Shown here: positions 6,518 to 32,275 of the stretch, in pieces | How positions within the stretch are numbered: the first letter of the stretch is position 1 | How the letters are laid out: each line of letters starts with the position of its first letter | Virus record (IMG/VR): IMGVR_UViG_3300025887_000010 | Span: 32,001-96,000 of that record | Strand: one strand, 5' to 3' | From: a virus | Length of the DNA: 64,000 nt | The notes under the pieces: generated by a model | Told to the model about the DNA's origin: nothing | What the model saw: only the letters and a program-made list of their open reading frames with translations | Database searches by the model: none | Made by a program: the position numbers and the translations under genes

Positions 6518-7675
6518 TCAGAAAAGATCGAGAGGGGCGGCAGGAACCTTTGATTTCGAGAGGACTTTCCAGAACTCATCGTACCATGAGTCTTCAGAGA
6601 AGTGCTTGCGTGCAGACTCAGCGATAGACTTTCTGTCATCAAACGATAGTGAGTTGACATATACGAGCTTGATCTTCAGGTCAAGTACCCACTCAGGATC
6701 ATCATATGCGACAGGTTTGACACCAAGGTCCGTCACCTGGTTGATGTAGTGATCGGCAGCATGAGTTTGACCTGCCTTGTCAACGAACGTGATCGGTATT
6801 CCACCAAATAGCAGTGTCTCGATTGCAATCAAACCAAGCGACTCATCGGGTCGAGCGACCAAACATGTCGAGCATTTCTGATACTCGAGCAGAAGCTGAT
6901 CTCTCGTTTCATTGTGATGAAGAACGGTGTTCTCAGATTTGTCGAGAGTCTTGATGATGTTCGGGAAGTCTGCACCGGAGACGTATGCGTCAAATTCGAT
7001 TCCAGCCTTTGCAATCTTTCCGAAATTCTTCTGTGGGTGGCATCGACCGACCATCAACGTTTTGCCTTCATTCGGCACGACATCCATTTCCCAAATCTTC
7101 GGATCCATTGTCGTGTAGACGTCAGCATCGTCAGAAATATAAGTGTGTGGCGGAGGATTGTCCATCGTATCAGAGAACTCGAAATGCTTTGCGCGAATCC
7201 ATGGTGAAGCATAGACTCGGCCACCATTCTCTGTGATGGTCATGCAATTCCTGACGATGCCCTGCAGGAACATCGGACTTGGTATCCAATCTGGGATCAT
7301 ATGGGTCGTTGGAATGAACTTCGAAATGGCAGCTGGAACTGTAGTCGTTGAAGCATTCGACCAACAGAAATCAGGATTGATGATCTTCGCCTGATCAATG
7401 TAGGCCTTTCCGACCCTTCGAGACATGGCGACTGCTTCCTTTGGTCCATGAAGTTCCAACACTTCGTCTCGACTCAACTCACTAACAGAGTGGAATGTCG
7501 CATATTCCAGGAAGACTGGATCAATCTTGCCAGTGCACAGAACGTGAACGTCAATTCCCTTCTTCTTAAGGATTTTGATCCACGAATGCTGACGAGCTTC
7601 GATGCCGTTGCGAGGCTTTCGGTGATCCTTGAACGCACCACCAGTGATGTGAGTCGAGACGATAAGGATTTTCAT
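6518..7675 (-). CDS. GT-B fold glycosyltransferase (GT4-like)
   Basis: MKILIV N-terminal strand, VGRCHPQKN, and ESLGLIAIETLLFGGIP (E-x7-E motif). Confidence 0.8.
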   Translation of the reverse strand: MKILIVSTHITGGAFKDHRKPRNGIEARQHSWIKILKKKGIDVHVLCTGKIDPVFLEYATFHSVSELSRDEVLELHGPKEAVAMSRRVGKAYIDQAKIINPDFCWSNASTTTVPAAISKFIPTTHMIPDWIPSPMFLQGIVRNCMTITENGGRVYASPWIRAKHFEFSDTMDNPPPHTYISDDADVYTTMDPKIWEMDVVPNEGKTLMVGRCHPQKNFGKIAKAGIEFDAYVSGADFPNIIKTLDKSENTVLHHNETRDQLLLEYQKCSTCLVARPDESLGLIAIETLLFGGIPITFVDKAGQTHAADHYINQVTDLGVKPVAYDDPEWVLDLKIKLVYVNSLSFDDRKSIAESARKHFSEDSWYDEFWKVLSKSKVPAAPLDLF

Positions 7676-8100
7676 GCACAAATGCCTTTCAGCATTTTGG
7701 AGTCAATAACGTACGACGAAAGATCGGGTGCTTTCCAACCTTCAGGCTTGATGGCATCAGGAAGGCCGAGAGGATTTGGACGACCAGGTTTGACACCAAT
7801 CTCCTTTTCCATATTGGCATCGTGAACCTCGATGAAAGCCCCAAGTGACATATCAGTGCCGATCAGAATGTTGAGAGTTCCGACGTTGAAATATAGACCA
7901 TCGATGAGTGCATCAACAATCTCGGCTGCATCTTTATCTGCGATTGCATTCTTCAGTTCAGTAAGCTCTTCTTCCATCATACGAACACGAAGTTCAATGA
8001 AAGCTTTAAGCTTCTCAGGGTCACTTGCGATCTCGTCGTAGCGGTTAACGTGACCCATCTTTTCATGGAATTCTTCCACTATGTCGAAAATGTTCATCAT
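7672..8100 (-). CDS. MazG-like (all-alpha) NTP pyrophosphohydrolase
   Basis: EEELTE...EIVDALID, EVHDANM.K, IKPEGWKAPDL. Confidence 0.85.
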   Translation of the reverse strand: MMNIFDIVEEFHEKMGHVNRYDEIASDPEKLKAFIELRVRMMEEELTELKNAIADKDAAEIVDALIDGLYFNVGTLNILIGTDMSLGAFIEVHDANMEKEIGVKPGRPNPLGLPDAIKPEGWKAPDLSSYVIDSKMLKGICA

Positions 8101-8357
8101 TCTTTGATCTCCTCTGGTTCATAGACCTTGTCGCCGATATTTGAAATTTGTGTTGTCAGCAAAAATGAATTCGCTGTGAGTTTGTTCTGAAACTGAACGA
8201 ACGATTTCACAAGCTCTGTGATGACAGGTGGCTCATTACCATCCAGAGCTTGAACTATCGTTCCGAGAGTGCTCGAAAGATTTTCGTTCAGTTCATCGAT
8301 TCCAAGGCTAGTATCGCGCAGCCTTGCGACGATCGTTTGCATTTCTTCAGGGCTCAT
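8097..8357 (-). CDS. Hypothetical helical protein
   Basis: RBS and ATGA coupling. Confidence 0.65.
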   Translation of the reverse strand: MSPEEMQTIVARLRDTSLGIDELNENLSSTLGTIVQALDGNEPPVITELVKSFVQFQNKLTANSFLLTTQISNIGDKVYEPEEIKE

Positions 8358-8368
8358 CCTATTTCCTT

Positions 8369-9253
8369 TCAGAGAAATTTGTCATAGGCTTTTTCGATCG
8401 AGAACGACTCGTTACCGAAGTGTTCATGGACCTTTGCGATCTCGTCGATTGTGGTCTTCTTATAGTCGCCGAGGAAGACTTCGAATGGCTTCGCTCCAGG
8501 CTGCTTCGTTTCGGTCATCGTATCAATTCCCATCAAGATCATTCCGAAATCGATGCGAATGTCTGTCATCTCCTCAAACGCCATCGCGTAAAGCGATATT
8601 TGACGTTTGTATCCACCAATGTCTTTCGCAGACTTCTCTTTGCGAGACGATTTGAAGTCGATCAGTGTGATGAGACCATTGAACTCGACATCGTATGCTC
8701 CTCCATCCTTGTTCAAAACGCCTTCGAGTGTGTAGTCCTCGTCGTATTCCCCAATACAGTCAACTCTACCAGCAATCTGAAGAACATCCGAATAGAGAGC
8801 ATGCTCCAAACAGTGAACGTTGTCGATTTTGTCGAGGTATGGACGAAGCTTCCTGAATAGACTCCATCCTCGCATGTGAGTGTCTTTGACGACCTCATTT
8901 CGAATGTAGAGTTCGGCCATATCGTGCATCGACGTACCACGAGTTCGGGCCTCATGACTGACGCGATCGGCTTCTTCTTCACCAACAGCATCTCTCCAAG
9001 CCTGAAGCCAACCATTCTCACCCTGAAGATCAGCAATCTGACCGAGTATCGTCGTTGCAGATGGATATGCGCGTTTCTCAGGATTGTCGTCAGTTGGTGG
9101 AATGATGTAGTAGCGCCCAGGGAATTTGCCTTCCTTGTACGCGTCGATGTTATGCACGTCTTTGCGAAATTTGAACTGATCCCAGTCGTGAGTGAATGGG
9201 ACCAGTCTTGGTTGTTGCTCAGCCGACTCTCTGAATTTCTTGAAAATACTCAT
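8369..9253 (-). CDS. PD-(D/E)XK (Cas4-like) exonuclease of T4-like phages
   Basis: YPSATTILG, RGTSMH, AGRVDC, IDFKSS, QISLYA. Confidence 0.85.
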   Translation of the reverse strand: MSIFKKFRESAEQQPRLVPFTHDWDQFKFRKDVHNIDAYKEGKFPGRYYIIPPTDDNPEKRAYPSATTILGQIADLQGENGWLQAWRDAVGEEEADRVSHEARTRGTSMHDMAELYIRNEVVKDTHMRGWSLFRKLRPYLDKIDNVHCLEHALYSDVLQIAGRVDCIGEYDEDYTLEGVLNKDGGAYDVEFNGLITLIDFKSSRKEKSAKDIGGYKRQISLYAMAFEEMTDIRIDFGMILMGIDTMTETKQPGAKPFEVFLGDYKKTTIDEIAKVHEHFGNESFSIEKAYDKFL

Positions 9254-9259
9254 GGTCTA

Positions 9260-9288
9260 GCTATATCACATCCTGCTCATCTTGTACA
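9260..9288 (-). promoter_or_regulatory. Early promoter (TGTACA-N17-TATAGC)
   Basis: Motif match inside the 3' end of the upstream gene. Confidence 0.65.
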
Positions 9289-9752
9289 ACAGTTTTTGGA
9301 TGAGGAATACGATGAGGATACGGTTTTGGTGGACACATGAAGTACGAGACATTCTCTTCGAAGTTCCGATTGTGTTGAATCATCCAATCTTCTTGACCTT
9401 TCTCCTTGAGGTGCTTGTTGATATCAGAGATCATCATACTGACGGTGCTCAGATCAGAACCGGACTCGAAAAGGGTGTCGTAGAACATGTTCGACCACAT
9501 CACATCTTTGCAACGACCATCAGGTGCGCACAACCAAAGATGTGAAAAGAGTCGGCGTTTGCGAATGACCTTCATTGAAATTCTACTATTTTTCGGAATG
9601 CCCATACCAAAGTTCGGATCGATTCCGATATTTATCAGCGCCATTTTGGTATGTTCGCTCATTTCGAGATGATACTCTAGAAGATTGAGAGCGTAATCCA
9701 CCTTCATCAGATCGTTTGGTAACTTGTTGATTTCGTCTTCGTACGGTCTCAT
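9261..9752 (-). CDS. Hypothetical protein
   Basis: ATGA-coupled to the glf stop; third gene of the GT-glf operon. Confidence 0.65.
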   Translation of the reverse strand: MRPYEDEINKLPNDLMKVDYALNLLEYHLEMSEHTKMALINIGIDPNFGMGIPKNSRISMKVIRKRRLFSHLWLCAPDGRCKDVMWSNMFYDTLFESGSDLSTVSMMISDINKHLKEKGQEDWMIQHNRNFEENVSYFMCPPKPYPHRIPHPKTVVQDEQDVI

Positions 9753-10786
9753 TTGAAGTCCTCTGCTGCTCGCATTGCTGAATTGACAGCTTGATCCATA
9801 TCTAAATAGGCATAAAGACCAAGGCGACCAATGAAGGTTATCGAGTATGGCCGCGCCATCTTCTTGTATTTTTCGTAGAGCTTACGATTCTCTCCGTCCA
9901 CATCTTTGACAGGATAGAATTTGCGATCACCATTTTCTTCAGCAGCACATGGCTCTTCCCACATTACGGCAGATGTTTCGGACGATCCATAGCTATTCGG
10001 AAGCTTCGACCACTCTGTGATCCGTGTGTATGGGCCAGTGTTAGTGAAGTTCACTGTTGCAGCCTGGAGAACATTCTCGAGTGGGAGTGTTGCATGATGG
10101 AACTTGAGAGAACGATACGGAAGGTGTCCATGGATGTAGTTGAAATACTCATCGATAGGCATCGAATTGAAAATCCAGTCCGCACTTGCGATGAAATCAC
10201 CACCGTATCCAGTTTTACCAAACTCCATAAAGTCGCAACCTGTCATAACATTGATGTTCTCATGATCGAGCATGTTTTCAACCATTTTGGTGTATCCATC
10301 CTTAGGAAGCACCTGAATGTCGTCGTTTGGGAAGTACAGCTCATTCATATCGTCACGAATGGGAACACGATTCATGATGCTCGGACTCACCCTTTCAAGT
10401 GACATTCCCCACATCTTCTCGGTGTAAGGACGGAAGAAGATGTCGATAACGTTTTCTTCGCCGACGATTTCTTTCGTTTCCTTGTTCACAGGAAGCGTGA
10501 CAAGACGTCCATCTTCAAGAAGAGCTTTGACCTTGTGCTCATATTTCACCCATTCCGTGAATCGGCTCAGAAACTCGAAGACTTTGACGTTGTTCGTGTG
10601 GAACAGGTGAGGACCATATTTGTGGATTCGATGTCCGTCATCGATCACATAATCAAAAGCGTTGCCGGCAACATGGTCACTCTTCTCCATGACGACGATT
10701 TTGTGTCCCTTTTCAGCGAGAAGACGAGCAACTGTTGATCCTGAAAGTCCTGCTCCGACGACAATGAATTTGCATTTTTTGCTCAT
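9749..10786 (-). CDS. glf: UDP-galactopyranose mutase (FAD-dependent)
   Basis: GAGLSG, AGNAFD, HKYGPHLFHT, FFRPYTEKMWG, RVPIR, PKDGYT, LPYRSL, YTRITE, FYPV, GRLGLYAYLDMDQAV. Confidence 0.95.
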   Translation of the reverse strand: MSKKCKFIVVGAGLSGSTVARLLAEKGHKIVVMEKSDHVAGNAFDYVIDDGHRIHKYGPHLFHTNNVKVFEFLSRFTEWVKYEHKVKALLEDGRLVTLPVNKETKEIVGEENVIDIFFRPYTEKMWGMSLERVSPSIMNRVPIRDDMNELYFPNDDIQVLPKDGYTKMVENMLDHENINVMTGCDFMEFGKTGYGGDFIASADWIFNSMPIDEYFNYIHGHLPYRSLKFHHATLPLENVLQAATVNFTNTGPYTRITEWSKLPNSYGSSETSAVMWEEPCAAEENGDRKFYPVKDVDGENRKLYEKYKKMARPYSITFIGRLGLYAYLDMDQAVNSAMRAAEDFK

Positions 10787-11898
10787 TTGCGTGCATCCAA
10801 AATTTTCTGGAGTTCTTCACGTTGAACTCGTTTCGTAAGTGGGTGTTTCTCATAGAGGCAGTCTTTCTGTGCTTTCGCAAGAGCAACTAGACCAGCTGTA
10901 TCGAGACCCTCGATTTTGTCGGCAGTGAGGTTTTCGTACGCTTCACCGTAGACTTCAGCTTCTTTCTGATCACAAAGCAGAATCGATCCTGCATCAGCAA
11001 CTTGAAGCGGACGGGCACGCCACCAACCAGAGCCAGCATGGCTGTACGCAGGCATCAGGCAACCCCATTGTTTGTTAAAGATGCGACACATTTCGGTCTC
11101 AGTGACTCGTTCGCATTTGTATTCGCCACGTGATGCACCGAAGAAGTTCACCTTCCATTCGACCTTCTTGCTCTTCATCCACTTACGTGTCTTGTTATGA
11201 ACGAGAGATGCGAAGTTCCATTCACGAAGCTTTTTCTCAGGACGAATGCCAATGGTGTCAGGCTCATCGAACATGTCAAGATCAGTGTCGTTTTCGAGAC
11301 CGAAATTGTTGTCAGGTCGACGATTTAGGTGGTACGGATTTGGGTTGTATGTGAAGACACGCTCACTTGGCCATTCGAGACTCAAGAGACTCAGATCGCC
11401 ACCAGCAAATGCGCTCATCAGAAGGCGATTCTTGCCATTGACAATGCTGTCGCAAGCATCCTTGTAGAACGATTCGTACTTCTGCACTTCCTCGAGTGAC
11501 TCCTTGCCACCCCAGTTCGACCACAGATAGTCGCGATAGCCATTTCCTTCTTCGAGCTGCTTCTTGTAGCCGATGATGTCTTTGAAGATACCAGGGAATT
11601 GCCAATCATCGAAAGCAACAATGCAATCTGGGCGAGCGCCGATAGCATACAGACCTGACCACAGATACTGTGTGAAGGCTGCTGTTGGGTGGACGATCGC
11701 AATCACGTCCTCATACTCGGAAAGGTCTTCGCCCAGTTTGACGACTCGTTGTTCGACTTCGTATCCCATTGCTTCGAGACCATTCACGAGTGAGTAGTGC
11801 GAAGGAACGATCTGCAAGCGAAGAAAAGCCGAGTGTGCATTTCGGTTGCATTGAGCTTTGTTCATTCCGGTGACGAGGATTTTCGGTTTTGCAGTCAT
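10783..11898 (-). CDS. T4 beta-glucosyltransferase-like DNA glycosyltransferase
   Basis: Colinear similarity to T4 BGT recalled from memory: IVPS...LEAMGYEV (TVPS...ISEMGLNV), AFDDWQFP (LFTDIRLP), VNFFGASR (IEFFGNAR), RARPLQVADAGSILLCD (TLRVWETMASDAVMLID). GGAG RBS before ATG 11898. Confidence 0.7.
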   Translation of the reverse strand: MTAKPKILVTGMNKAQCNRNAHSAFLRLQIVPSHYSLVNGLEAMGYEVEQRVVKLGEDLSEYEDVIAIVHPTAAFTQYLWSGLYAIGARPDCIVAFDDWQFPGIFKDIIGYKKQLEEGNGYRDYLWSNWGGKESLEEVQKYESFYKDACDSIVNGKNRLLMSAFAGGDLSLLSLEWPSERVFTYNPNPYHLNRRPDNNFGLENDTDLDMFDEPDTIGIRPEKKLREWNFASLVHNKTRKWMKSKKVEWKVNFFGASRGEYKCERVTETEMCRIFNKQWGCLMPAYSHAGSGWWRARPLQVADAGSILLCDQKEAEVYGEAYENLTADKIEGLDTAGLVALAKAQKDCLYEKHPLTKRVQREELQKILDARK

Positions 11899-11931
11899 AG
11901 GTATCTCCATAGAGGTTTTGTTCTTAAGTTC

Positions 11932-11960
11932 AGTGTATCACAATTTAGCCAGCTTGTACA
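11932..11960 (-). promoter_or_regulatory. Early promoter driving the BGT-like/glf operon (TGTACA-N17-TACACT)
   Basis: Motif match immediately upstream of the GT start. Confidence 0.7.
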
Positions 11961-12184
11961 CAGTCAATGCCATGTTTTTGCCATCTAATTGTCTCGATGG
12001 CATTCGCAAACACTTCGTGTTCGTTCATCTCGAAAAGGAGTTTCTCACGAAGTGGATGCTCGAAGTCTTCGACATCGGTACAGTGATTGCGGAAAATGTA
12101 TTGTCCGAATCTCACATTATTGTCGGCAGATTTCCACGCACGGAAAACTTCAACGAGTTCGGAATAGGTCTCAATCTTTAGCAT
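11945..12184 (-). CDS. Hypothetical protein
   Basis: MLKIETYSELVEVF...VRFGQYIF; overlaps the end of the upstream gene. Confidence 0.6.
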   Translation of the reverse strand: MLKIETYSELVEVFRAWKSADNNVRFGQYIFRNHCTDVEDFEHPLREKLLFEMNEHEVFANAIETIRWQKHGIDCVQAG

Positions 12185-12797
12185 CAGGTAGATCCAGGTC
12201 AAAGTATTCAAGTTCTTTCAGGGTGATGAACTGTGTATTTTGCCTCTTCTCACGGCGAGAAATATGATGATGACCACCAATCCAATAGTCGGGTTGATGA
12301 ATTTCGAAAAGCTCCTGAAGTATCTCGCGAGTGTTTGTGATTTCATGACCGAATTGATCTTCGACATACGATTGTGGAAAGTCGTGTGAGATGACCACTC
12401 GAGGCTTCGCAATTTCGTAACGGGTAAGTATGCTGAGAAACTTGTCTTCAGTGACTTCCTCATCAGGCCACCAATTTATGCCTGGTATAAGAACCTTTCC
12501 AGGATTGTCAGGCGTTTTCGCACCGCCGAAGTAGAAGATTGAGCGTTTCCTGTCGTAGTAGCCGTCTGAGATGTAGTTTCCCATTCCTTCAGCAATTTGT
12601 GGGTGGTCATGATTGCCTCTAATAAACAAATGACTGGGATTCTTGTTTACCCATTGAACGATTTCCACCATTTCATGCGGTCTGAAAAAACCGAATCCAA
12701 AGTCGCCAACCTGAATAGAGTTCTCAACGACTTCTGCAATTTCAAAGTATTCCTGAAACTTAGCGTGGACATCGCCAATAATTCGGACTTTGGTCAT
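12171..12797 (-). CDS. Calcineurin-like metallophosphoesterase
   Basis: GDVH, GDFG, RGNHD, SHD, GHHH. Confidence 0.88.
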   Translation of the reverse strand: MTKVRIIGDVHAKFQEYFEIAEVVENSIQVGDFGFGFFRPHEMVEIVQWVNKNPSHLFIRGNHDHPQIAEGMGNYISDGYYDRKRSIFYFGGAKTPDNPGKVLIPGINWWPDEEVTEDKFLSILTRYEIAKPRVVISHDFPQSYVEDQFGHEITNTREILQELFEIHQPDYWIGGHHHISRREKRQNTQFITLKELEYFDLDLPDAKD

Positions 12798-12820
12798 ATT
12801 GATCTCCTATTTCTTAATTC

Positions 12821-12849
12821 ATGATATCACATTTCGTGCATGATGTACA
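12821..12849 (-). promoter_or_regulatory. Early promoter (TGTACA-N17-TATCAT)
   Basis: Motif match upstream of an AGGAG RBS. Confidence 0.7.
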
Positions 12850-12935
12850 TAGTAAAGTGACTGTTGCCTCGTTAAACCTGGAGCTCGCTGAGTCTTACGA
12901 TCGTATTGACAATATAATATACATCAAACGACAAA

Positions 12936-12964
12936 GAGGAACTCAGCGATTCACTGAGTTCCCC
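12936..12964 (-). terminator. Intrinsic terminator in non-coding region
   Basis: GGAACTCAG/CTGAGTTCC stem followed by TCTTTGTCGTTT on the minus strand. Confidence 0.6.
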
Positions 12965-13021
12965 TGGTTAGATCAAGGTTGTCAATCTTGTCTTACATAT
13001 TTCAGAACAAACTTTCGAAGA

Positions 13022-13050
13022 ATTATATCATAGTGGAGGCTATAAGTACA
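13022..13050 (-). promoter_or_regulatory. Early promoter (TGTACT-N17-TATAAT) with no downstream ORF
   Basis: Motif match with perfect TG-A-TATAAT. Confidence 0.65.
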
Positions 13051-13116
13051 TAACCTTTATCAAACTTTTTGACATTTCAAAGAAAGATTTGGTCTTCTTC
13101 ATTCCACGTTTTCCAA

Positions 13117-13491
13117 CTACTTCTTTGTGCCTGGAGCAGAGGAGGTCAAGTGTTCCTCCGTCTCTTCGAGATACTCAAAGCTTCCATCAGTTGCTTCAAA
13201 GTTTCCCTTCAAAATCATCGACTTGATCCATTCTTCGTTAAGAAAACGATCGAAACAATCGATGATTTGACCATGAAGATGTGCAAAGGGTGAACAGAAG
13301 ATGATTCGATTCTGGTGGTATCTCGCAAAGAACCGAACATCTGCAATCTCGAATGAGACAAAGTCGACATTGCGGTTCAAATAGCCTTCAAGCTGAGAAT
13401 TCGTGCGATAATAGGAATGGAGAGGTACTCCAGAGATGTCGAGTGCAGTTCCGTCATCAGCAATGGTGACGTTTTTGTTGTAATGTCTCAT
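13117..13491 (-). CDS. Hypothetical protein
   Basis: ATGA-coupled ORF. Confidence 0.65.
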   Translation of the reverse strand: MRHYNKNVTIADDGTALDISGVPLHSYYRTNSQLEGYLNRNVDFVSFEIADVRFFARYHQNRIIFCSPFAHLHGQIIDCFDRFLNEEWIKSMILKGNFEATDGSFEYLEETEEHLTSSAPGTKK

Positions 13492-14093
13492 TTTTGGACC
13501 TTTTTAATTACGTTGAGCACCTTCTTAGAGAATGCGTATTGATCTTCGAGTCGTAGGGATTGGCGAAGAATTCGGTAAGCTCTCTTCGAAAGCAGCCCTT
13601 TCTCCTTCCGCAGTTCGCTGAGATCGACTTCTTCGACCTCACTGTGATACTTCATGGCAGACAGAATCGAAAGTTCACCAGAGATAACGCCATTCACAAT
13701 TCCGGTTTTGCCGTTCTTTTCGACGAGATTTGGCATCGCTCGAAAAGAATCACGAAGGAACATAAAGTTTTCCTCATGATCTGATTGTACGAACGATTGG
13801 TAGATGTCATGCAATTTGTCGACGACACTCGTTGAAACCTCGCTGTCGTAAATGTGAGGCATGTTCGAAGTCTTCGCGATGTTGTTGATGAAGAAGAACG
13901 CAAAGTAATACTCGTCGTTCATCTTCCTTACGATCTGCTTCAGGTTACGCTGTGCAAATCCTCTCTGTGCAGTCGACATCTTCGGATACTTGAACCTAGG
14001 AACGAGTTCCTGGTCGAGAGGAAGATCATGGTCTGCCACGAAGATCATTCGATATCCGTGAGCAGACCGAAAGAGATCATTCTTATCAGCCAT
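13488..14093 (-). CDS. Probable helicase loader (gp59-like)
   Basis: 201 aa, near gp33; FAFFFINNIAK and IVNGVISGELSILS weakly resemble T4 gp59. Confidence 0.45.
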   Translation of the reverse strand: MADKNDLFRSAHGYRMIFVADHDLPLDQELVPRFKYPKMSTAQRGFAQRNLKQIVRKMNDEYYFAFFFINNIAKTSNMPHIYDSEVSTSVVDKLHDIYQSFVQSDHEENFMFLRDSFRAMPNLVEKNGKTGIVNGVISGELSILSAMKYHSEVEEVDLSELRKEKGLLSKRAYRILRQSLRLEDQYAFSKKVLNVIKKVQK

Positions 14094-14799
14094 CGTCGTT
14101 CACGCGGATCGCCAAACCATTGTTGGTGGTCCATAGTGTGTGATAGCCGTATTTCGCGAGATGCTCCTTGACAGCACGTGCACTCTTCGTCACTCGATTG
14201 CCTTCGAAGTAGATGATAGAAGGACGAATCTTGTTCCAGTCGGTTGCAATGATTGCGTCGGCGTCTTCACCTTCGATATCAATCTGGATGATATCGGGTT
14301 GAGTCCCAGACGCGTTCACGAGAGACTCAATGGTCTGAGTCTTGAAGTTGAACTTCTCGATTGCGTCTTCGGCCTGGTCTTCTGGGTTCTGACGTGCTTG
14401 ATGGAACCAGTTTCGCAACTTCCCATAATGGATTGTTGAGACGCCGAGTGGTGCACGATATTCAGGCCAATCAGGTTTCGAGTATGTCCGTGCAACCTTC
14501 GACCAATATTCCTCCTTGATGCAAAAGATTTCGACATCTTCACCATCTGTCGACGAAACGATTGAAGGGATGATCTCGAAATCTTCATAGTCGATTTCAG
14601 CCATGTGATTGCGGATGATAGGATGAAGTGACGAGATTGGCTCGACGAGAATCAAGCTTGAGCGGTCTCGAAGTTGAGGAAGAATGCCGTAAAGCGGATC
14701 GTTGTATTTCGCATCATTTGCGCCGATGACCATCAAATCCAAATACGATTTCGAAGTCAAAAGAGTCATTATGGCTGCGTAGTATGGTGTCGTTCTCAT
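14086..14799 (-). CDS. FkbM-family SAM-dependent methyltransferase
   Basis: MVIGANDA, LILVEP, PDIIQIDIEGED, RPSIIYFE. Confidence 0.82.
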   Translation of the reverse strand: MRTTPYYAAIMTLLTSKSYLDLMVIGANDAKYNDPLYGILPQLRDRSSLILVEPISSLHPIIRNHMAEIDYEDFEIIPSIVSSTDGEDVEIFCIKEEYWSKVARTYSKPDWPEYRAPLGVSTIHYGKLRNWFHQARQNPEDQAEDAIEKFNFKTQTIESLVNASGTQPDIIQIDIEGEDADAIIATDWNKIRPSIIYFEGNRVTKSARAVKEHLAKYGYHTLWTTNNGLAIRVNDDG

Positions 14800-15044
14800 G
14801 ATATGTCCAGTTCTATGTGAGTGGATTTCGATTGCTTGAGCAAGTTGTTCTTTCTGGCTTCAGCAGAAACCCGTTCGATGAATGTTTGGGAGAACTTCAC
14901 CGTTTTGTGAATTTCCTCGTAATCTACATCGTGTTGCTCGCAGTAGTCCACAGCAGCATCAAAGAGTGAGTCGAACTCATTATCCGAGAAGTGCTGTAAG
15001 ATTTTCTGCTCGAAGTCAGATACGGTTTTTGGTGATGCACCCAT
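14796..15044 (-). CDS. gp33: Late transcription co-activator
   Basis: LFDAAVDYCEQHDVDYEE...ERVSAEARKNNLLK matches the gp33 pattern. Confidence 0.8.
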   Translation of the reverse strand: MGASPKTVSDFEQKILQHFSDNEFDSLFDAAVDYCEQHDVDYEEIHKTVKFSQTFIERVSAEARKNNLLKQSKSTHIELDIS

Positions 15045-15727
15045 TACGAGGGATCAGGAATGAGATTGAAGTTGCGCTCATAGAAGTGCATGTTCTGCAC
15101 TTGCCAGTGAAGTGTACCGATCTCTAGATCGAAGTCAAAAAGTGTGTGTGCATTCAAATCACAGACAAGCATGCTCATGACATGTATCTGCCATGCACGA
15201 TCATTTCGATATCCAGCCCAGGCATCGTTCGAACGCATTTGAACTACAGCATGAAGCTTACCATCACGAATCTGGTAGGAAACAGCATTGGTGCAGATAA
15301 AGTCAGACATACCGTTGTGAGCATACTCGACCCAAATAGATGGACGGTTGTAGATCATGACGGCTCGACGTGAACTCGGATTTTTCGCAAGTTCCTCTAA
15401 AACTTTGGCGTATTGATGATGGTATAACGGCGAAAAGATCAGCAATCCGTAATTGGAGTTGATGAGACCGTCACTGGATGAGATGTCTTGCCAGATTTTT
15501 GGAACGATGTCGTAATATCTACCGATATCGTTAACAGAACGACTCATCGATTCGTACCAATCGATTTCGGCATCGATGTATTTCGTGTTAAGATCACCGA
15601 ATATGGTTGCTTCATCAGCTTCAAACGATGCTCCGAGGATTTCGATTACGTTCGTTCCACCGAGATTGACGATGTCACCAGCAGCTTTCTTCTCGATGAA
15701 TAGGTTACGGATATCTTGTACGTTCAT
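15044..15727 (-). CDS. gp42: dCMP hydroxymethylase (thymidylate synthase fold)
   Basis: Colinear with T4 gp42: IEILGASFEADE..IFG, EIDWY, INSNYG, NPSSRRAVMIYNRPS, GMSDFICTN (catalytic Cys), MRSND, GYRND (Asp of cytosine-specific enzymes), MHFY. Confidence 0.93.
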   Translation of the reverse strand: MNVQDIRNLFIEKKAAGDIVNLGGTNVIEILGASFEADEATIFGDLNTKYIDAEIDWYESMSRSVNDIGRYYDIVPKIWQDISSSDGLINSNYGLLIFSPLYHHQYAKVLEELAKNPSSRRAVMIYNRPSIWVEYAHNGMSDFICTNAVSYQIRDGKLHAVVQMRSNDAWAGYRNDRAWQIHVMSMLVCDLNAHTLFDFDLEIGTLHWQVQNMHFYERNFNLIPDPS

Positions 15728-16116
15728 TGGACGCTCTCCTCTTCTTCTGACAATTTGCGATTGAAGACATCAGCCTGTAGGTCTTGGCCGTCGATCTCTC
15801 TGTTGATGAACGCAGCCATGAAGCTTGCGTAGTTGACCATATCCATCAGGGTGTCTTCGACGGATTCGAAAACTGGAGCGTTATTGTTCGATTCCCATGT
15901 TTCGATCAGTGACTGAAGCCGAAGCTTCTTCGCATGGATGATCTCTTCGATCGTCTTGATGCCTGACGGATAATAGTCAGCTTGCTTGACGCGAGAGTTT
16001 GGATTTTGGTAATCCTGACCCTTGAGTCGTTGAAGTTCGATGCATTTCTGCAGGAACATAACCGAGTAGCGCTCTTTCGATACGCCGATGGCTTCGAGTC
16101 GGTTGGTTGTAGACAT
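15724..16116 (-). CDS. Nucleotide-modification-associated domain 1 (DUF1599-like all-alpha pyrophosphatase fold)
   Basis: K..DY, K..RL, ESVEDTLMDMVNYA; coupled directly upstream of gp42. Confidence 0.72.
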   Translation of the reverse strand: MSTTNRLEAIGVSKERYSVMFLQKCIELQRLKGQDYQNPNSRVKQADYYPSGIKTIEEIIHAKKLRLQSLIETWESNNNAPVFESVEDTLMDMVNYASFMAAFINREIDGQDLQADVFNRKLSEEEESVQ

Positions 16117-17313
16117 TCACATTTCTCCTTTGTCAAACCGCATTTTCAAGAATTCTGGGTGGCGAAGACGACCGGCTGGAGTGTACTCCATGAATTCCGC
16201 TTCGCATTCTTCACCGATCAACTGATCACGAATTTCCCAGAGATATTCGCGTTGCCTATCGGAAAAGCCTCCGCCAATTTTCGTTGTGGTGCCTTTCTGG
16301 GTCTTAACTATCAACGCACCAAGCTTGCCTTTGAGGCGACCTCGTCCTTCATGAAATCCGGTGACTTCGAAAGAGTCTTCAACAAGAGGCTTGACCTTCA
16401 TCCAGTCGAGTGTGCGCTTGAATGAGTACTTGCCCTTCTTCTTCTTGAGGATTGCACCTTCATGACCGGCTTTGCGATACCGATTGTAGGCAGCTTCAGC
16501 TTCTTCGAGAGAGTTCACAATCTCATGTTCGGCGAGTGGAGTCACTAAGATCATTGATTTCAGAGCTGCATATCGTTCTTCGTATTCGCGAGTGCTTTTG
16601 CGAGACTTGAATTCTTCCATTGTGATTGCATCGAAGAGTTTCAGGCTAGAAAGGACTGCGTCTGAAGTGCTGCGATGGATAACACCAACTGAAAGGTTGA
16701 AGTCACCACCATCAGTGATTGCTTCACCATCGAAGACCATGTTGGGATACGCAGAAAGTTCATTGAGAATTTCCGGATCGATATTGTAGAGAGGCTTGCC
16801 GTTTCTCGAAAGAGTTTCAGTGGCTCCATGTGCATCTACAAGAACGACACAGCGAACTCCATCGAATTTCGGCTGAGCGTAACAAGGGAATTCAGTTTTG
16901 GATTTCGTGTAGGACCCAGCCAATTGAAGGCTAAAGGTCTTGTACGCGTCTTTGTAGACGGTACGGAACGATTTACCACCAATTCCGAGTTGGTATGACT
17001 GAAATCGCCCAAGAATCGAGTTGGTCACATTCAGCTGCAAGTCGGAGAAATCTTCGCAGTTATTGCGAAGCCATTTGAAGTCGGACTCTCCCAAGGCCGT
17101 GAGGATTTGTTCATCGGTGATGGCAGATTCGACATTTGGAAGGGTTGGGCGAAGTTTTGAGACTCCGAAGTTGTGGAATGGATCAAATGACCAGGTGATG
17201 ACTTGCACGGTGTGTGCATCAATCTCACGAAGAGCTTCAATTTTTGCATTGGTTCCTTTTGTGGAACCAAGCATTGATAGATCGCGATGGATAAGTTCGA
17301 ATGGATTCATCAT
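16117..17313 (-). CDS. gp30: ATP-dependent DNA ligase
   Basis: QPKFDGVR, FDGE, EGAILK, WMKVKP, IGGGFSD, LRHPEF. Confidence 0.93.
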   Translation of the reverse strand: MMNPFELIHRDLSMLGSTKGTNAKIEALREIDAHTVQVITWSFDPFHNFGVSKLRPTLPNVESAITDEQILTALGESDFKWLRNNCEDFSDLQLNVTNSILGRFQSYQLGIGGKSFRTVYKDAYKTFSLQLAGSYTKSKTEFPCYAQPKFDGVRCVVLVDAHGATETLSRNGKPLYNIDPEILNELSAYPNMVFDGEAITDGGDFNLSVGVIHRSTSDAVLSSLKLFDAITMEEFKSRKSTREYEERYAALKSMILVTPLAEHEIVNSLEEAEAAYNRYRKAGHEGAILKKKKGKYSFKRTLDWMKVKPLVEDSFEVTGFHEGRGRLKGKLGALIVKTQKGTTTKIGGGFSDRQREYLWEIRDQLIGEECEAEFMEYTPAGRLRHPEFLKMRFDKGEM

Positions 17314-17325
17314 ATTGTCCTTTGT

Positions 17326-17607
17326 TTATAGTTCCACTATATCATACATAGCACGCATTGTAAACAAGAAAATTGTCAACGCTATTCGTGAAGGATGACA
17401 CCTGACTTGAGTGTGACGCGAATTCGATACTTGACGTACGGACCAACTGGTGGATTTTTTGGAAATCACAGGACCAGTGTAGCGCATAATACGACCTTGA
17501 ATTCGAATTCCGTCATTTCTCGAATATGCTGAAACTGTGGTTGTTCCTAACATATTCAGTCTCTTTCTAGTTCTCGCTTTACCGAGAAGGTAATCAGCTT
17601 TGGCCAT
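17326..17607 (-). CDS. Possible basic hypothetical protein
   Basis: AGGAAC upstream of ATG (MAKADYLLGK...), but the 3' end runs through the ligase promoter. Confidence 0.3.
   Translation of the reverse strand: MAKADYLLGKARTRKRLNMLGTTTVSAYSRNDGIRIQGRIMRYTGPVISKKSTSWSVRQVSNSRHTQVRCHPSRIALTIFLFTMRAMYDIVEL
17336..17364 (-). promoter_or_regulatory. Early promoter for ligase-Nmad1-gp42-gp33-FkbM operon (TTTACA-N17-TATAGT)
   Basis: Motif match. Confidence 0.7.
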
Positions 17608-17636
17608 AATTTCTGTTCCTAAAGTGTAGTCCAAGT

Positions 17637-18341
17637 CTACTCAGAAGATTGCTTCTTGAGGATAAGTTTCAAAATTTGATCGACAGTCTGGACACTTTCG
17701 ACCTCGTGATCGTCGATTTCAAGTTCGAAATCTTCCTCGATGAGTATATGGATTTCGACACAATCCAAACTGTCAGCTCCCAAATCAGTGTGGATGTCTG
17801 AATTGGGGTGAACGAGATCGATATCAACCATGAGATGGCTTGCGAGAATACTTTTGATACGGGTAAGAAGACTGTCGTTTTCGACTTCCTTCACTGGTTT
17901 ATCATCAGTGATTGTCATCGGGATGATCGACGATTCACGATCTCCGAAAATATATAGGTTTGGGTTCTTCCAGCGAGCTTCGAATTCCTCGTTCGGAATG
18001 TAGAAGATGCGATCAATCCCAGCTTTGAATAGCTTGGAGATGCATCCTCCACATGGGAAACCAGTTACGTAGGCATCACATCCTTCGACACGAGTACCGA
18101 ATTGAGCAGCATTCAGGAGTGCATTCTCTTCAGCGTGGATTGAAAAGACAAGACGATCGTCGCGTTGTAGATTTTCAACTGCGTCATCATCGATACCTGG
18201 ACAATTTCCATTCCATCCAGTAGAGATGATGTGGTGTGACTTGGAGGCAATAACACATCCAACATGAGCACCGTTATGTTTCGAATTTTGCGATGCAAGA
18301 GATGCAACACACATTGGGTAGGTTGTGATGCTCTTCATCAA
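17637..18341 (-). CDS. cd: dCMP deaminase fused to a C-terminal acyl carrier protein domain
   Basis: HAEENA and PCGGC zinc motifs, then in frame RIKSILASHL...DLGADSLDCVEI...EEDFELEIDD...TV (ACP; Ser codon at 17769-17771). Confidence 0.88.
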   Translation of the reverse strand: MMKSITTYPMCVASLASQNSKHNGAHVGCVIASKSHHIISTGWNGNCPGIDDDAVENLQRDDRLVFSIHAEENALLNAAQFGTRVEGCDAYVTGFPCGGCISKLFKAGIDRIFYIPNEEFEARWKNPNLYIFGDRESSIIPMTITDDKPVKEVENDSLLTRIKSILASHLMVDIDLVHPNSDIHTDLGADSLDCVEIHILIEEDFELEIDDHEVESVQTVDQILKLILKKQSSE

Positions 18342-18538
18342 ACTTCCTCCATCCTTTCGGCCGCATTGATCGAATTCGTCACATCCTCGATGTGTTTATT
18401 CGCATCGTTGATCGCATTCTGAGCTTCCAAACCTGCAATTCCACAGCGAACGTCAGAGTGAATGAACGCCTGTGTGAGTGCATTGCGCAATTTCACAATG
18501 AGATCAAACTGTTCTTTCGATTGGACTTTTTTATTCAT
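18338..18538 (-). CDS. Hypothetical protein
   Basis: AAGGAA RBS before ATG 18538; promoter at 18574-18602. Confidence 0.65.
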   Translation of the reverse strand: MNKKVQSKEQFDLIVKLRNALTQAFIHSDVRCGIAGLEAQNAINDANKHIEDVTNSINAAERMEEV

Positions 18539-18596
18539 GTCTACGTTTCCTTTGTTTAAGGTTTCATAATTCAATCATAACACAAAGCAAATGCGA

Positions 18597-18787
18597 TGTA
18601 CACACAAAAATGGCGAGCACGAGGCTCGCCATTTCTTTTATAAATGTTGCTTTAGACGATTACAGCATGACAATCTCCCCTTATTCTAAAAGCGTTTGAA
18701 AGACGATTTCAAAAGTTTCGATAGTTAAGATATATCACACTCTGTACGTCTTGTACACACAAAAATGGCGAGCACGAGGCTCGCCAT
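18597..18787 (-). repeat. 36-bp direct repeat (18597-18632 and 18752-18787): terminator hairpin fused to the -35 box of an early promoter
   Basis: Identical TGTACACACAAAAATGGCGAGCACGAGGCTCGCCAT in both copies; GGCGAGC/GCTCGCC stem followed by TTTTTG on the minus strand; -10 boxes at 18574-18579 and 18729-18734. Confidence 0.9.
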
Positions 18788-18813
18788 CATTTTGATCAGT
18801 GTTTCTGTTCGAC

Positions 18814-30780: not shown

Positions 30781-32275
30781 CGTAATACTCCTCCTCAATG
30801 TCGAACTCCTGCTCGATGTAGCGGAGCATTCGTTCTTCTGCATGGTTAGCACAATATGACTGGTTATTCGGTCCAAGTTCAAGATCATCGAAAATGTCGT
30901 AGATGTCTACAGAGTCCTTATCTTCAGAGACTCTCAGATATCGACCGACTGTTTGGATGACAGTAATCTTCGATTTGACAGGTGATGCCAGAACTCCAAC
31001 GTTGAGATTGTCGATGCTCACACCTGTTGAGAGTGTCGCATATGTCGCAAAGAGCTTGACACCTTTGCCTTCGTTTGCTCGTTTCTTTGCAAACTCGCGA
31101 TCTGCACCCTTGATCCCGCCATGAATGACGTAGACCTCTTCGTCAGGGTACAGCTTACGATAGAGATCGACAAGTCGTTTACCATGCTTCTTGAAGCGGA
31201 AGAGAATGAGAACGTTCTCATCCTTGTCGCGATTCTGAATGATGTCAAAAATTGCTCTATCTCGTGCCTTGATGGCAAGAAGAAACTTGATCTCATCCAT
31301 ATACTCAAGACGATTCTCGAAAAGATCAGGACGATCAGCGCGAATACGATCATAACCAAATCGAGAAGAGATGACCTTAAGCTTCGCACTTCTTCCTCGA
31401 TCGATCAGCTCCTTTGTAGTAGTCGTCTTGATGATTGGACCGAAGAGTCCACGAAGAACGAGTTCAGCTGTCTTTGAATCACGGAGTGATCCTGAAAGAC
31501 CATTTCGATGATGAGCATTCTGACACTTCTCCATGATTCCACGAATGGACGCAGATTCGGCAAGGTGGACTTCGTCAACGACGACAGAATCGAAGCACTG
31601 AAACCATTCAGGCTCCAGCTTGAAGATCGATTGCCATGTCGTGATGGTAATCTTCGCAGAGTTGTCCTTAGAACCGCGCAGTTTGTGAATGTCTTCTTCA
31701 TCAATGCCGAATTCAATCAGGTCTTCGTACGTCTGATTGAGAAGCATAATTGAAGGAACGACCACAAGGATGTTGTTGTCGAATATGCGAGCATGAAGAC
31801 AATATGCGACGTAGAGATAGATGATGAACGTCTTGCCAGAATTGGTAGGCGATTCGATCAAGCGTCTCTTTCCGCAGATCATCTGGATGGCAGCTTCTAT
31901 CTGATATTCGTCAGGTTCGAAGGGGAAAGTTTGTTTCTCGAACCATTCCATGAAGTCAGAGCGAAGGTTTTCTGGTCCATTGAAATTGTGGATGTATACT
32001 TCTCCAAAATCCTCCGATTTGAGTTTGTCGTAGATGTCCTTAACGAGACCAGTGTAGATTTTCTTCGAACGACGATCGAACATTCGAATTTTTCCATCCC
32101 ACTTGCCTTTCTTGTATCTCGGCTGGAATTGTGCTCCAGGCACATTGAATGTGAACTCATCGGAGAGAGCCATCTCAACCGCATGGTTGTTCGTGACCAC
32201 TTCTATGTGGACGGGATTCGAACAGTCGAGGATTGTCTGGAATTCGGAGCTTTTCATATATATTTTACCACTCAC
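30773..32275 (-). CDS. uvsW: SF2 DNA/RNA helicase
   Basis: FTFNVPGAQF, WDGKIRMF, PTNSGKT, DEVH, GLSGS, STGVSI.NL, QTVGR.LR. Confidence 0.95.
   Translation of the reverse strand: MSGKIYMKSSEFQTILDCSNPVHIEVVTNNHAVEMALSDEFTFNVPGAQFQPRYKKGKWDGKIRMFDRRSKKIYTGLVKDIYDKLKSEDFGEVYIHNFNGPENLRSDFMEWFEKQTFPFEPDEYQIEAAIQMICGKRRLIESPTNSGKTFIIYLYVAYCLHARIFDNNILVVVPSIMLLNQTYEDLIEFGIDEEDIHKLRGSKDNSAKITITTWQSIFKLEPEWFQCFDSVVVDEVHLAESASIRGIMEKCQNAHHRNGLSGSLRDSKTAELVLRGLFGPIIKTTTTKELIDRGRSAKLKVISSRFGYDRIRADRPDLFENRLEYMDEIKFLLAIKARDRAIFDIIQNRDKDENVLILFRFKKHGKRLVDLYRKLYPDEEVYVIHGGIKGADREFAKKRANEGKGVKLFATYATLSTGVSIDNLNVGVLASPVKSKITVIQTVGRYLRVSEDKDSVDIYDIFDDLELGPNNQSYCANHAEERMLRYIEQEFDIEEEYYDV

Follow-up and report, generated by a model that had tools for sequence, protein, structure and literature searches.

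A predicted dCMP deaminase-acyl carrier protein fusion in an uncultured freshwater T4-like phage

The 64,000-nucleotide stretch of viral DNA analysed here (the window; positions 32,001 to 96,000 of IMG/VR record IMGVR_UViG_3300025887_000010) carries on its minus strand a gene in which a predicted deoxycytidine monophosphate (dCMP) deaminase continues, without a stop codon between the two domains, into an acyl carrier protein (ACP) domain. The record is 126,862 bp long, is estimated to be 83% complete and contains T4-type capsid, scaffold and prohead-protease genes; its source is an uncultured freshwater T4-like phage. The fusion gene, its parts and the elements that define its start, including an upstream open reading frame (ORF), are the following:

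17637..18338, minus strand: the whole dCMP deaminase-ACP fusion gene, 233 amino acids from ATG 18338, stop codon TAG at 17639-17637
17922..18338, minus strand: predicted dCMP deaminase domain, residues ~1-140, with HAE at 18137-18129 and the zinc-binding PCGGC at 18056-18042
17877..17921, minus strand: linker, residues ~141-155, low model confidence, includes Met141
17640..17876, minus strand: predicted AcpP-type acyl carrier domain, residues ~156-234, with DLGADSLD at residues 186-193 and the Ser191 codon at 17771-17769
18346..18350, minus strand: Shine-Dalgarno sequence GGAGG, 7 nt before ATG 18338, read directly from the sequence
18338..18574, minus strand: upstream ORF of 78 amino acids, whose TGA overlaps the ATG of the fusion gene

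The ORF as a whole extends over 17637-18341 and has 234 open codons, the first listed one being TTG 18341, which would give a protein of 234 amino acids if it were used. ATG 18338-18336 follows directly after this TTG, is preceded at 7 nt by GGAGG and shares bases with the TGA that ends the 78-amino acid ORF; it is probably the real start, and 233 amino acids is the most likely length because of these two signals. The same length is found exactly in the database protein P0002. Residues are numbered throughout according to the 234-amino acid version that begins at TTG 18341. The 78-amino acid ORF has no match in Pfam or PHROG and, given the TGA/ATG overlap, is probably translationally coupled to the fusion gene. 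An earlier note on this DNA, made without database searches, had described a deaminase (HAE, PCxxC) running in frame into an ACP (DLGADSLD), with no convincing ribosome-binding site before an internal Met. Both observations hold: each domain passes its Pfam cut-off with its motifs intact, and Met141 (ATG 17918-17916) is preceded only by GGAGA at 22 nt, with nothing purine-rich at Shine-Dalgarno distance.

The N-terminal domain is, as far as can be predicted, a complete dCMP deaminase of the phage/ComEB type. Residues 10-114 match Pfam dCMP_cyt_deam_1 (PF00383) with 67.5 bits against a cut-off of 25 (E 1e-18), and the PHROGs match of this half is also a dCMP deaminase (E 1.8e-28). The catalytic HAE (residues 69-71) and the PCGGC motif (residues 96-100) are both nearly invariant in an alignment of 56 sequences, and an AlphaFold2 model based on the same 56 rows has a predicted local distance difference test score (pLDDT) of ~95 over the domain. 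The five best PDB sequence matches are all dCMP deaminases, namely those of Streptococcus mutans (2hvv, E 1.9e-16), human (2w4l), cyanophage S-TIM5 (4p9c), T4 (1vq2) and PBCV-1 (7fh4), followed in sixth place by a relative, human CDADC1; the top 14 Foldseek matches are likewise all dCMP deaminases and rank above TadA and RibD. The NCBIfam ComEB equivalog model gives 64.7 bits, far under its cut-off of 219, and the domain is therefore not a ComEB equivalog. A GWNG stretch aligns with the GYNG/GWNG of solved dCMP deaminases and is presumably part of the nucleotide-effector site, with which this motif is associated in the enzymes of S-TIM5 and S. mutans. The dCMP deaminases of known structure form allosteric hexamers; by analogy the deaminase described here is probably hexameric too. 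It shares with the known enzymes (T4 Cd, 1VQ2; S-TIM5, 4P9C; S. mutans, 2HVW; PBCV-1 bi-DCD, 7FH4) the fold, the HAE/PCxxC zinc site, GWNG/GYNG and a size of ~140 residues, whereas none of these carries a C-terminal carrier domain and the window protein adds a tether of ~15 amino acids and an ACP of ~80 amino acids. The only PADLOC match reflects the deaminase fold shared with a dCTP-deaminase defence protein and gives no link to a defence system. The closest deaminase relatives from cultured phages, which are T4-like phages of Rhizobium and Agrobacterium, have a different C-terminal extension of ~70 amino acids that has no similarity to ACP; an example is P0005, the 199-amino acid dCMP deaminase of Agrobacterium phage Atu_ph04 (L005, 5956-6555). 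The C-terminus of this deaminase clade seems to tolerate added segments.

The C-terminal domain is by its sequence of the AcpP type, resembling the carriers of type II fatty acid synthases, and is neither of the nonribosomal peptide synthetase/polyketide synthase type nor a strict AcpP equivalog. Residues 161-227 match Pfam PP-binding (PF00550) with 34.8 bits (cut-off 20.8, E 1.9e-8), the PHROGs match is the acyl carrier protein family phrog_5934 (E 1.1e-14), and the scores with the NCBIfam AcpP models, 54-67 bits, fall narrowly short of the cut-offs (TIGR00517, 59.8 against 70.45; NF002148, 66.5 against 71). A phmmer search of the PDB matched 104 ACPs, the best being that of Aquifex (2ehs, E 1.8e-12), with E. 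coli AcpP (1l0h/1acp) at E ~4e-10, and the alignment covers DLGADSLD and the acidic helix II. In the AlphaFold2 model helices are formed by residues 155-170, 191-205, 211-215 and 220-233 (pLDDT 83-92), and Foldseek places the domain on solved ACPs with a root-mean-square deviation (rmsd) of 0.8-1.1 Å at 35-40% identity, among them E. coli AcpP in complex with FabZ, LpxD and BioH/BioI. No variation at Asp190, Ser191 or Asp193 is seen among the three fused proteins introduced below and seven aligned ACPs, and Ser191 is the predicted phosphopantetheine acceptor. The four-helix fold (rmsd ~0.9 Å), DLGADSLD and the acidic helix II are thus held in common with E. coli AcpP (1L0H/1ACP), Aquifex aeolicus 2EHS and TIGR00517, the difference being that AcpP is a free protein of 8-9 kDa and the window's ACP is the C-terminal domain of an enzyme. 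Between the two domains the pLDDT falls to 65-67, and to below 50 at residues 148-153; it is likewise low at residues 143-151 of the fused relative P0003, whose linker is 33% identical to that of the window protein, and both the length and the sequence of the linker vary among the fused proteins. In these models the ~15-residue linker is a flexible or disordered tether.

The simplest objection to such a protein is that an assembly or sequencing artefact erased a stop codon or a frameshift between two genes. However, the fusion stretch was recovered in several metagenome runs of fresh water that belong to different samples and studies, and the contigs agree base for base over the junction. It is spanned by X3 (DNA, 17300-18626), X4 (DNA, 17300-18207) and X5 (17300-18328), with 0 indels; X5 comes from an RNA-Seq library and shows the continuous frame, though a contig of this kind cannot prove transcription. 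The single difference between these contigs and the window is T>A at 17749, which changes His198 to Leu (His198Leu), and the same change is found in P0002, which lies on a separate contig of 1678 bp and is otherwise identical to the window protein. Two further proteins, P0003 and P0035, have the same fused layout. The fusion is therefore almost certainly real, with both domains intact, and we regard an artefact as so improbable that it hardly needs to be considered.

The pairing of the two domains seems, from the sequences searched, to be very rare, undescribed and so far confined to uncultured phages. A phmmer search of 1.84 billion cluster representatives gave 14,348 matches, nearly all of which are deaminase-only. 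In addition, 5.8 billion clusters were searched by a word-indexed method, once with the single protein and once with a profile built from all three fusions, and when each domain was scanned again separately over the 228 proteins retrieved, both domains were found in only 3 clusters: P0002, which is the window's own, P0003 and P0035. No described or named family with both domains was found, the three carriers being unnamed metagenomic clusters. In the 948 GenBank phage records with a deaminase match, no match covers at least 80% of the query, and tblastn of the ACP part against GenBank phages gave nothing at E <= 1e-3 and only weak stand-alone ACP matches at E <= 5. A word-indexed search for possible donors of the domain, shorter proteins resembling the ACP part, returned no candidate. 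IMG/VR, searched with the fusion protein, the ligase and the capsid protein encoded nearby, contains no close relative beyond the window's own record, and the ESM Atlas gave no usable match. A literature search found no paper on a dCMP deaminase-ACP fusion. The remark in the earlier note that it knew of no described fusion of this kind is thus borne out by the GenBank phages, by the three clusters in two very large libraries and by the literature.

P0003 is a protein of 224 amino acids, 57% identical to the window protein, and is encoded on a 22.9 kb ENA contig, L001, the only syntenic relative. As in the window, a gp23 capsid gene is followed on L001 by the fusion, a DNA ligase gene, a gp42-like gene and then Metallophos and UDP-galactopyranose mutase genes; the capsid proteins are 82% and the ligases 66% identical. 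L001 has some features of its own: an extra gene of 492 codons with no Pfam match (L001, 5312-6790) lies between the capsid gene and the fusion operon, the small ORF upstream of the fusion (104 amino acids) is unrelated to the window's 78-amino acid ORF, and the ligase gene comes directly after the fusion, with no counterpart of the 102-amino acid ORF that lies there in the window. P0035 (246 amino acids) has a canonical DLGCDSLD, was assembled identically from three ENA samples and is found in a different, phage-like context of mostly small unknown genes. The earlier note had asked whether relatives encode the two domains separately; the closest one, which is also syntenic, is fused as well, and the independent assemblies have no hidden stop.

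Comparison of the window with L001 shows how differently the two halves have changed. The deaminase domains are 76% identical with a proportion of nonsynonymous differences (pN) of 0.17, and the ACP domains 34% identical with a pN of 0.43, the synonymous counterpart (pS) being 0.77-0.91 and hence saturated; dN/dS is not computable because of this saturation, and pN and pS are reported instead. Such values invite the explanation that the ACP is a decaying or purely structural appendage, for instance a tag that aids solubility or stability, and acts neither as a carrier nor in binding. It would account for the drop from 82% identity in the capsid proteins to 34% in the ACP domains of the same two relatives, and for the four-residue deletion beside the acceptor Ser in P0003, whose ACP is matched by Pfam only in part (24 bits). 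However, the ACP part of ~80 codons is still open in P0003 past synonymous saturation, with pN well below pS. The P0003 ACP is confidently predicted to have the four-helix fold, as is the window's domain, which is moreover 35-40% identical to bona fide ACPs. Asp-Ser and the acidic residues of helix II are invariant in all three fused proteins, the full set being Asp190-Ser191, Asp193, Glu202-Glu203, Phe205, Asp211 and Thr219-Val220. An appendage of this kind is, in our judgement, quite improbable.

The deaminase tree bears on whether the fusion arose once or twice. Among 161 deaminase domains, those of the window and P0003 fall in a supported clade of 13 (Shimodaira-Hasegawa-like approximate likelihood-ratio test, SH-aLRT, 96) together with deaminase-only proteins, the nearest of which, P0004, is 56% identical; the P0004 gene lies 56 nt from the end of its contig, which leaves too little sequence to show a following ACP gene. 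The deaminase of P0035 is placed elsewhere in the tree, far from this clade and beside deaminase-only proteins with which it shares 54% identity. A tree constrained to group the three fusions is worse by 57 log-likelihood units, with p = 0.055 in the approximately unbiased (AU) test, so that a single origin is not rejected at 0.05; this result is borderline, and the tested group was named after the tree had been seen. The ACP domains also differ in their affinities: the window's shares 52% identity with L015, a stand-alone viral ACP, and that of P0035 45-49% with others, whereas the two share only 29%. On the basis of these comparisons the fusion probably arose twice, independently.

Stand-alone viral ACPs provide a control for how such a protein may arise. 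Phage ACPs of PHROG 5934, annotated for example in Brevundimonas phage Bajun and Ralstonia phage phiRSL1, are AcpP-like as is the window's domain; in contrast to the fused ACP, they are separate genes of ~75-110 amino acids with no deaminase nearby. In the best 80 of 134 confirmed AcpP-like matches in IMG/VR, ~73 loci are stand-alone ORFs of 73-126 amino acids and 5-7 have extensions that belong to no Pfam family. None of these 80 loci has a deaminase ORF within 2.5 kb, and no adjacent split deaminase/ACP pair was seen among them; the fusion is therefore not a by-product of a common adjacent gene pair. Extensions of 90-330 amino acids without a Pfam family are found on ACP-containing IMG/VR ORFs in L067 (9-1247), L027 (1976-2737), L025 (2093-2722) and L083 (2195-2728), which, from their sequences, are possible further undescribed viral ACP fusions.

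These loci bear on the main competing explanation, in which the protein has two independent functions in one chain. The ACP would do the job of a stand-alone phage ACP in host fatty acid, lipid A or other acyl-ACP pathways; the domains would have been joined when a stop codon was lost or through an insertion, without functional coupling, and the flexible linker would let both work. Stand-alone AcpP-like genes are indeed common in viral contigs (the 134 confirmed matches) and form a PHROG of their own, the models show a disordered linker, no canonical AcpP feature is missing from the ACP domain, and other viral ACP ORFs have unrelated extensions, so that fusion as such is not rare. On the other hand, the same pair in the same N-to-C order is found in two lineages that seem unrelated in both domains, no split pair lies near the 80 viral ACP loci, and the fused state has outlasted synonymous saturation. 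Taken by itself we consider this explanation somewhat unlikely, while ranking it nearly as likely as the adaptor function proposed below.

The genes around the fusion place the deaminase in a T4-like nucleotide pathway, of which one member lies in the window close by:

15044..15727, minus strand: T4 gp42-type dCMP hydroxymethylase, matching PDB 1b49/1b5e (E 5.8e-60) over residues 2-223

A canonical ThyA (391 bits) is encoded outside the window (G000:24406-25176 of the record). With a gp42 homologue and ThyA both present, as they accompany T4 Cd, the deaminase occupies the position of T4 Cd, from which dCMP is either hydroxymethylated to hm-dCMP or converted via deoxyuridine monophosphate (dUMP) to deoxythymidine monophosphate (dTMP). 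The minus-strand region 6518-16116, which includes gp42, also encodes a DUF1599/Nmad1-like protein, an FkbM-type methyltransferase, a phosphoesterase, a MazG-like protein and glycosyltransferases, as well as a 375-amino acid PHROG 14998 protein coupled to the UDP-galactopyranose mutase Glf (9749-10786). The gene content of this cluster, of which gp42 and Glf were checked along with ThyA, suggests that the phage has DNA with sugar-modified hydroxymethylcytosine (hmC).

A role of the ACP as carrier for DNA-base or sugar hypermodification by this cluster was weighed; one option of the earlier note had been that the domain supplies an acyl group to the DNA-modification pathway nearby. The gene does lie beside this cluster with its gp42, the DUF1599/Nmad1-like protein, the FkbM-type methyltransferase, the UDP-galactopyranose mutase and the glycosyltransferases. 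However, the fusion protein contains the only PP-binding domain of the record, and profile searches of the record, which is 83% complete, found no phosphopantetheinyl transferase (PPTase; ACPS, PF01648) and no AMP-binding, LpxL, PlsC, hexapeptide, SDR, ketosynthase or FabA/Z family member. The record thus has no enzyme to load, extend or transfer an ACP-bound group, and P0035 is fused in a quite different gene context. The acyl-group option finds no support in these searches: PPTase, adenylating enzyme, ketosynthase, SDR, dehydratase and acyl-ACP acyltransferase are all absent from the record, and the neighbouring pathway is one of sugars and hmC. We consider a carrier role in hypermodification very improbable. 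The other options of the earlier note, docking to host ACP-binding partners, control of dNTP supply by the acylation state and a decoy for an ACP-dependent host defence or toxin, are speculative as well, and the analysis speaks neither for nor against them. Since the record has neither a PPTase nor an acyl-ACP enzyme, the carrier domain must depend on the host for its modification and its use, barring genes in the missing 17%.

ACP is a hub protein of bacterial metabolism, and to our knowledge its role in phages is essentially unstudied. The only functional statement on phage ACPs that we found is a contact between a phage ACP and host FabZ predicted in a preprint (10.64898/2026.03.01.708874). 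We propose, tentatively and with less than even confidence, that the window encodes a two-domain protein whose ACP serves as an adaptor to host partners and not as a carrier for a phage pathway. The deaminase would convert dCMP to dUMP for the phage ThyA, as T4 Cd does, judging from its genomic context, and would compete for dCMP with the gp42-type hydroxymethylase that feeds hmC-DNA. Host AcpS would make the ACP domain holo, the acidic helix II would let it engage host AcpP-binding proteins, and the ACP would either tether the deaminase to at least one host ACP partner or occupy those partners during takeover. This explanation is preferred because the fusion has been retained and is probably recurrent, and because the phage record offers no pathway in which the carrier could serve. 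Its parts are not equally firm: that the ACP domain works through host ACP partners is, on balance, probable, and that the tether itself is the selected function is a possibility we hold with more reserve than the adaptor proposal as a whole.

Several points weigh against this proposal. The ACP domain evolves ~3 times faster than the deaminase domain (dN 0.64 against 0.19), which fits host-specific adaptation and relaxed constraint equally, and P0003 lacks DLGA, the four residues just before Asp-Ser. With extensions on ~5-9% of the sampled viral ACP ORFs, one partner may recur by chance; since some ACP fusions exist, a partner found more than once points only weakly to selection, and the AU test of a second origin is borderline. 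Because the record is 83% complete, a PPTase or a partner enzyme could sit in the missing part, and modification of Ser191 and binding to partners are predictions only. Of the other explanations, decay of the ACP, involvement in DNA hypermodification and an artefact are each unlikely.

A further explanation is intramolecular regulation, in which the activity of the deaminase depends on whether the tethered carrier is apo, holo-thiol or acylated. For instance, the thiol of the phosphopantetheine arm might extend to the catalytic zinc or the nucleotide effector site of its own chain or of another subunit, which would couple the split of dCMP between hmC and T to the CoA or fatty acid status of the host. 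The deaminase sits at a regulated branch point with gp42 and ThyA and has the GWNG motif, and in the models the ~15-residue tether plus a prosthetic arm of ~20 Å could reach a neighbouring site. Against this, no docking or co-varying surface was found, neither the length nor the sequence of the linker is conserved, and the ACP surface diverges fast whereas the deaminase is conserved; a complex prediction for deaminase 1-140 and ACP 152-234 gave a score of 0.00, which counts neither for nor against docking. Regulation within the protein is in our view improbable. About equally improbable is a broader reading, in which the AcpP-like domain would be a portable module that phages attach to early or nucleotide-pool enzymes, here a dCMP deaminase, and in which its holo or acyl state, or its docking to the host hub, would control the enzyme, in this case setting the hydroxymethyl-C/T split of dCMP by host CoA or fatty acid status.

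The sequences on either side of the fusion gene contain some other elements, of which one is a possible promoter:

18574..18602, minus strand: sigma-70-like promoter match TGTACA-17-TATGAT ahead of the 78-amino acid ORF and the fusion gene, from a consensus scan only

Such sigma-70-like consensus matches, this one included, are not enriched over shuffled sequence. Just downstream of the capsid gene, in 18597-18790 on the minus strand, a terminator-like hairpin (core ATGGCGAGCACGAGGCTCGCCAT, a T-run and GTGTGTACA) is found twice, 155 nt apart, as exact copies (2 against 0 expected by chance), and the two copies flank a promoter-like site, the Shine-Dalgarno-like AAGGGGAG and a two-codon mini-ORF, ATG CTG TAA. 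On the other side, the 102-amino acid ORF between the fusion gene and the ligase gene (17326-17634, minus strand) contains a promoter-like site for the ligase (17364-17336). This ORF was checked as a possible small PPTase, has no match in Pfam or PHROG and no homologue in L001, and may be noncoding. A 33-nt piece around the ligase start (17312-17344) also matches a second, otherwise unlike contig in 4 of 4 runs, with 3 differences and loose ends on both sides, which points to a short conserved motif that other DNA of the samples also contains.

Each half of the protein is textbook, and it is the joining of a dCMP deaminase to an ACP that was not found on record. If the fusion is neutral, it amounts to an oddity of domain shuffling among T4-like phages of fresh water that have not been cultured. 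As a natural covalent link between an ACP and an enzyme at the hmC/T branch point, it offers a concrete and cheap handle on what phage ACPs bind, and this handle could also reveal whether the supply of DNA precursors is wired to the lipid and CoA status of the host.

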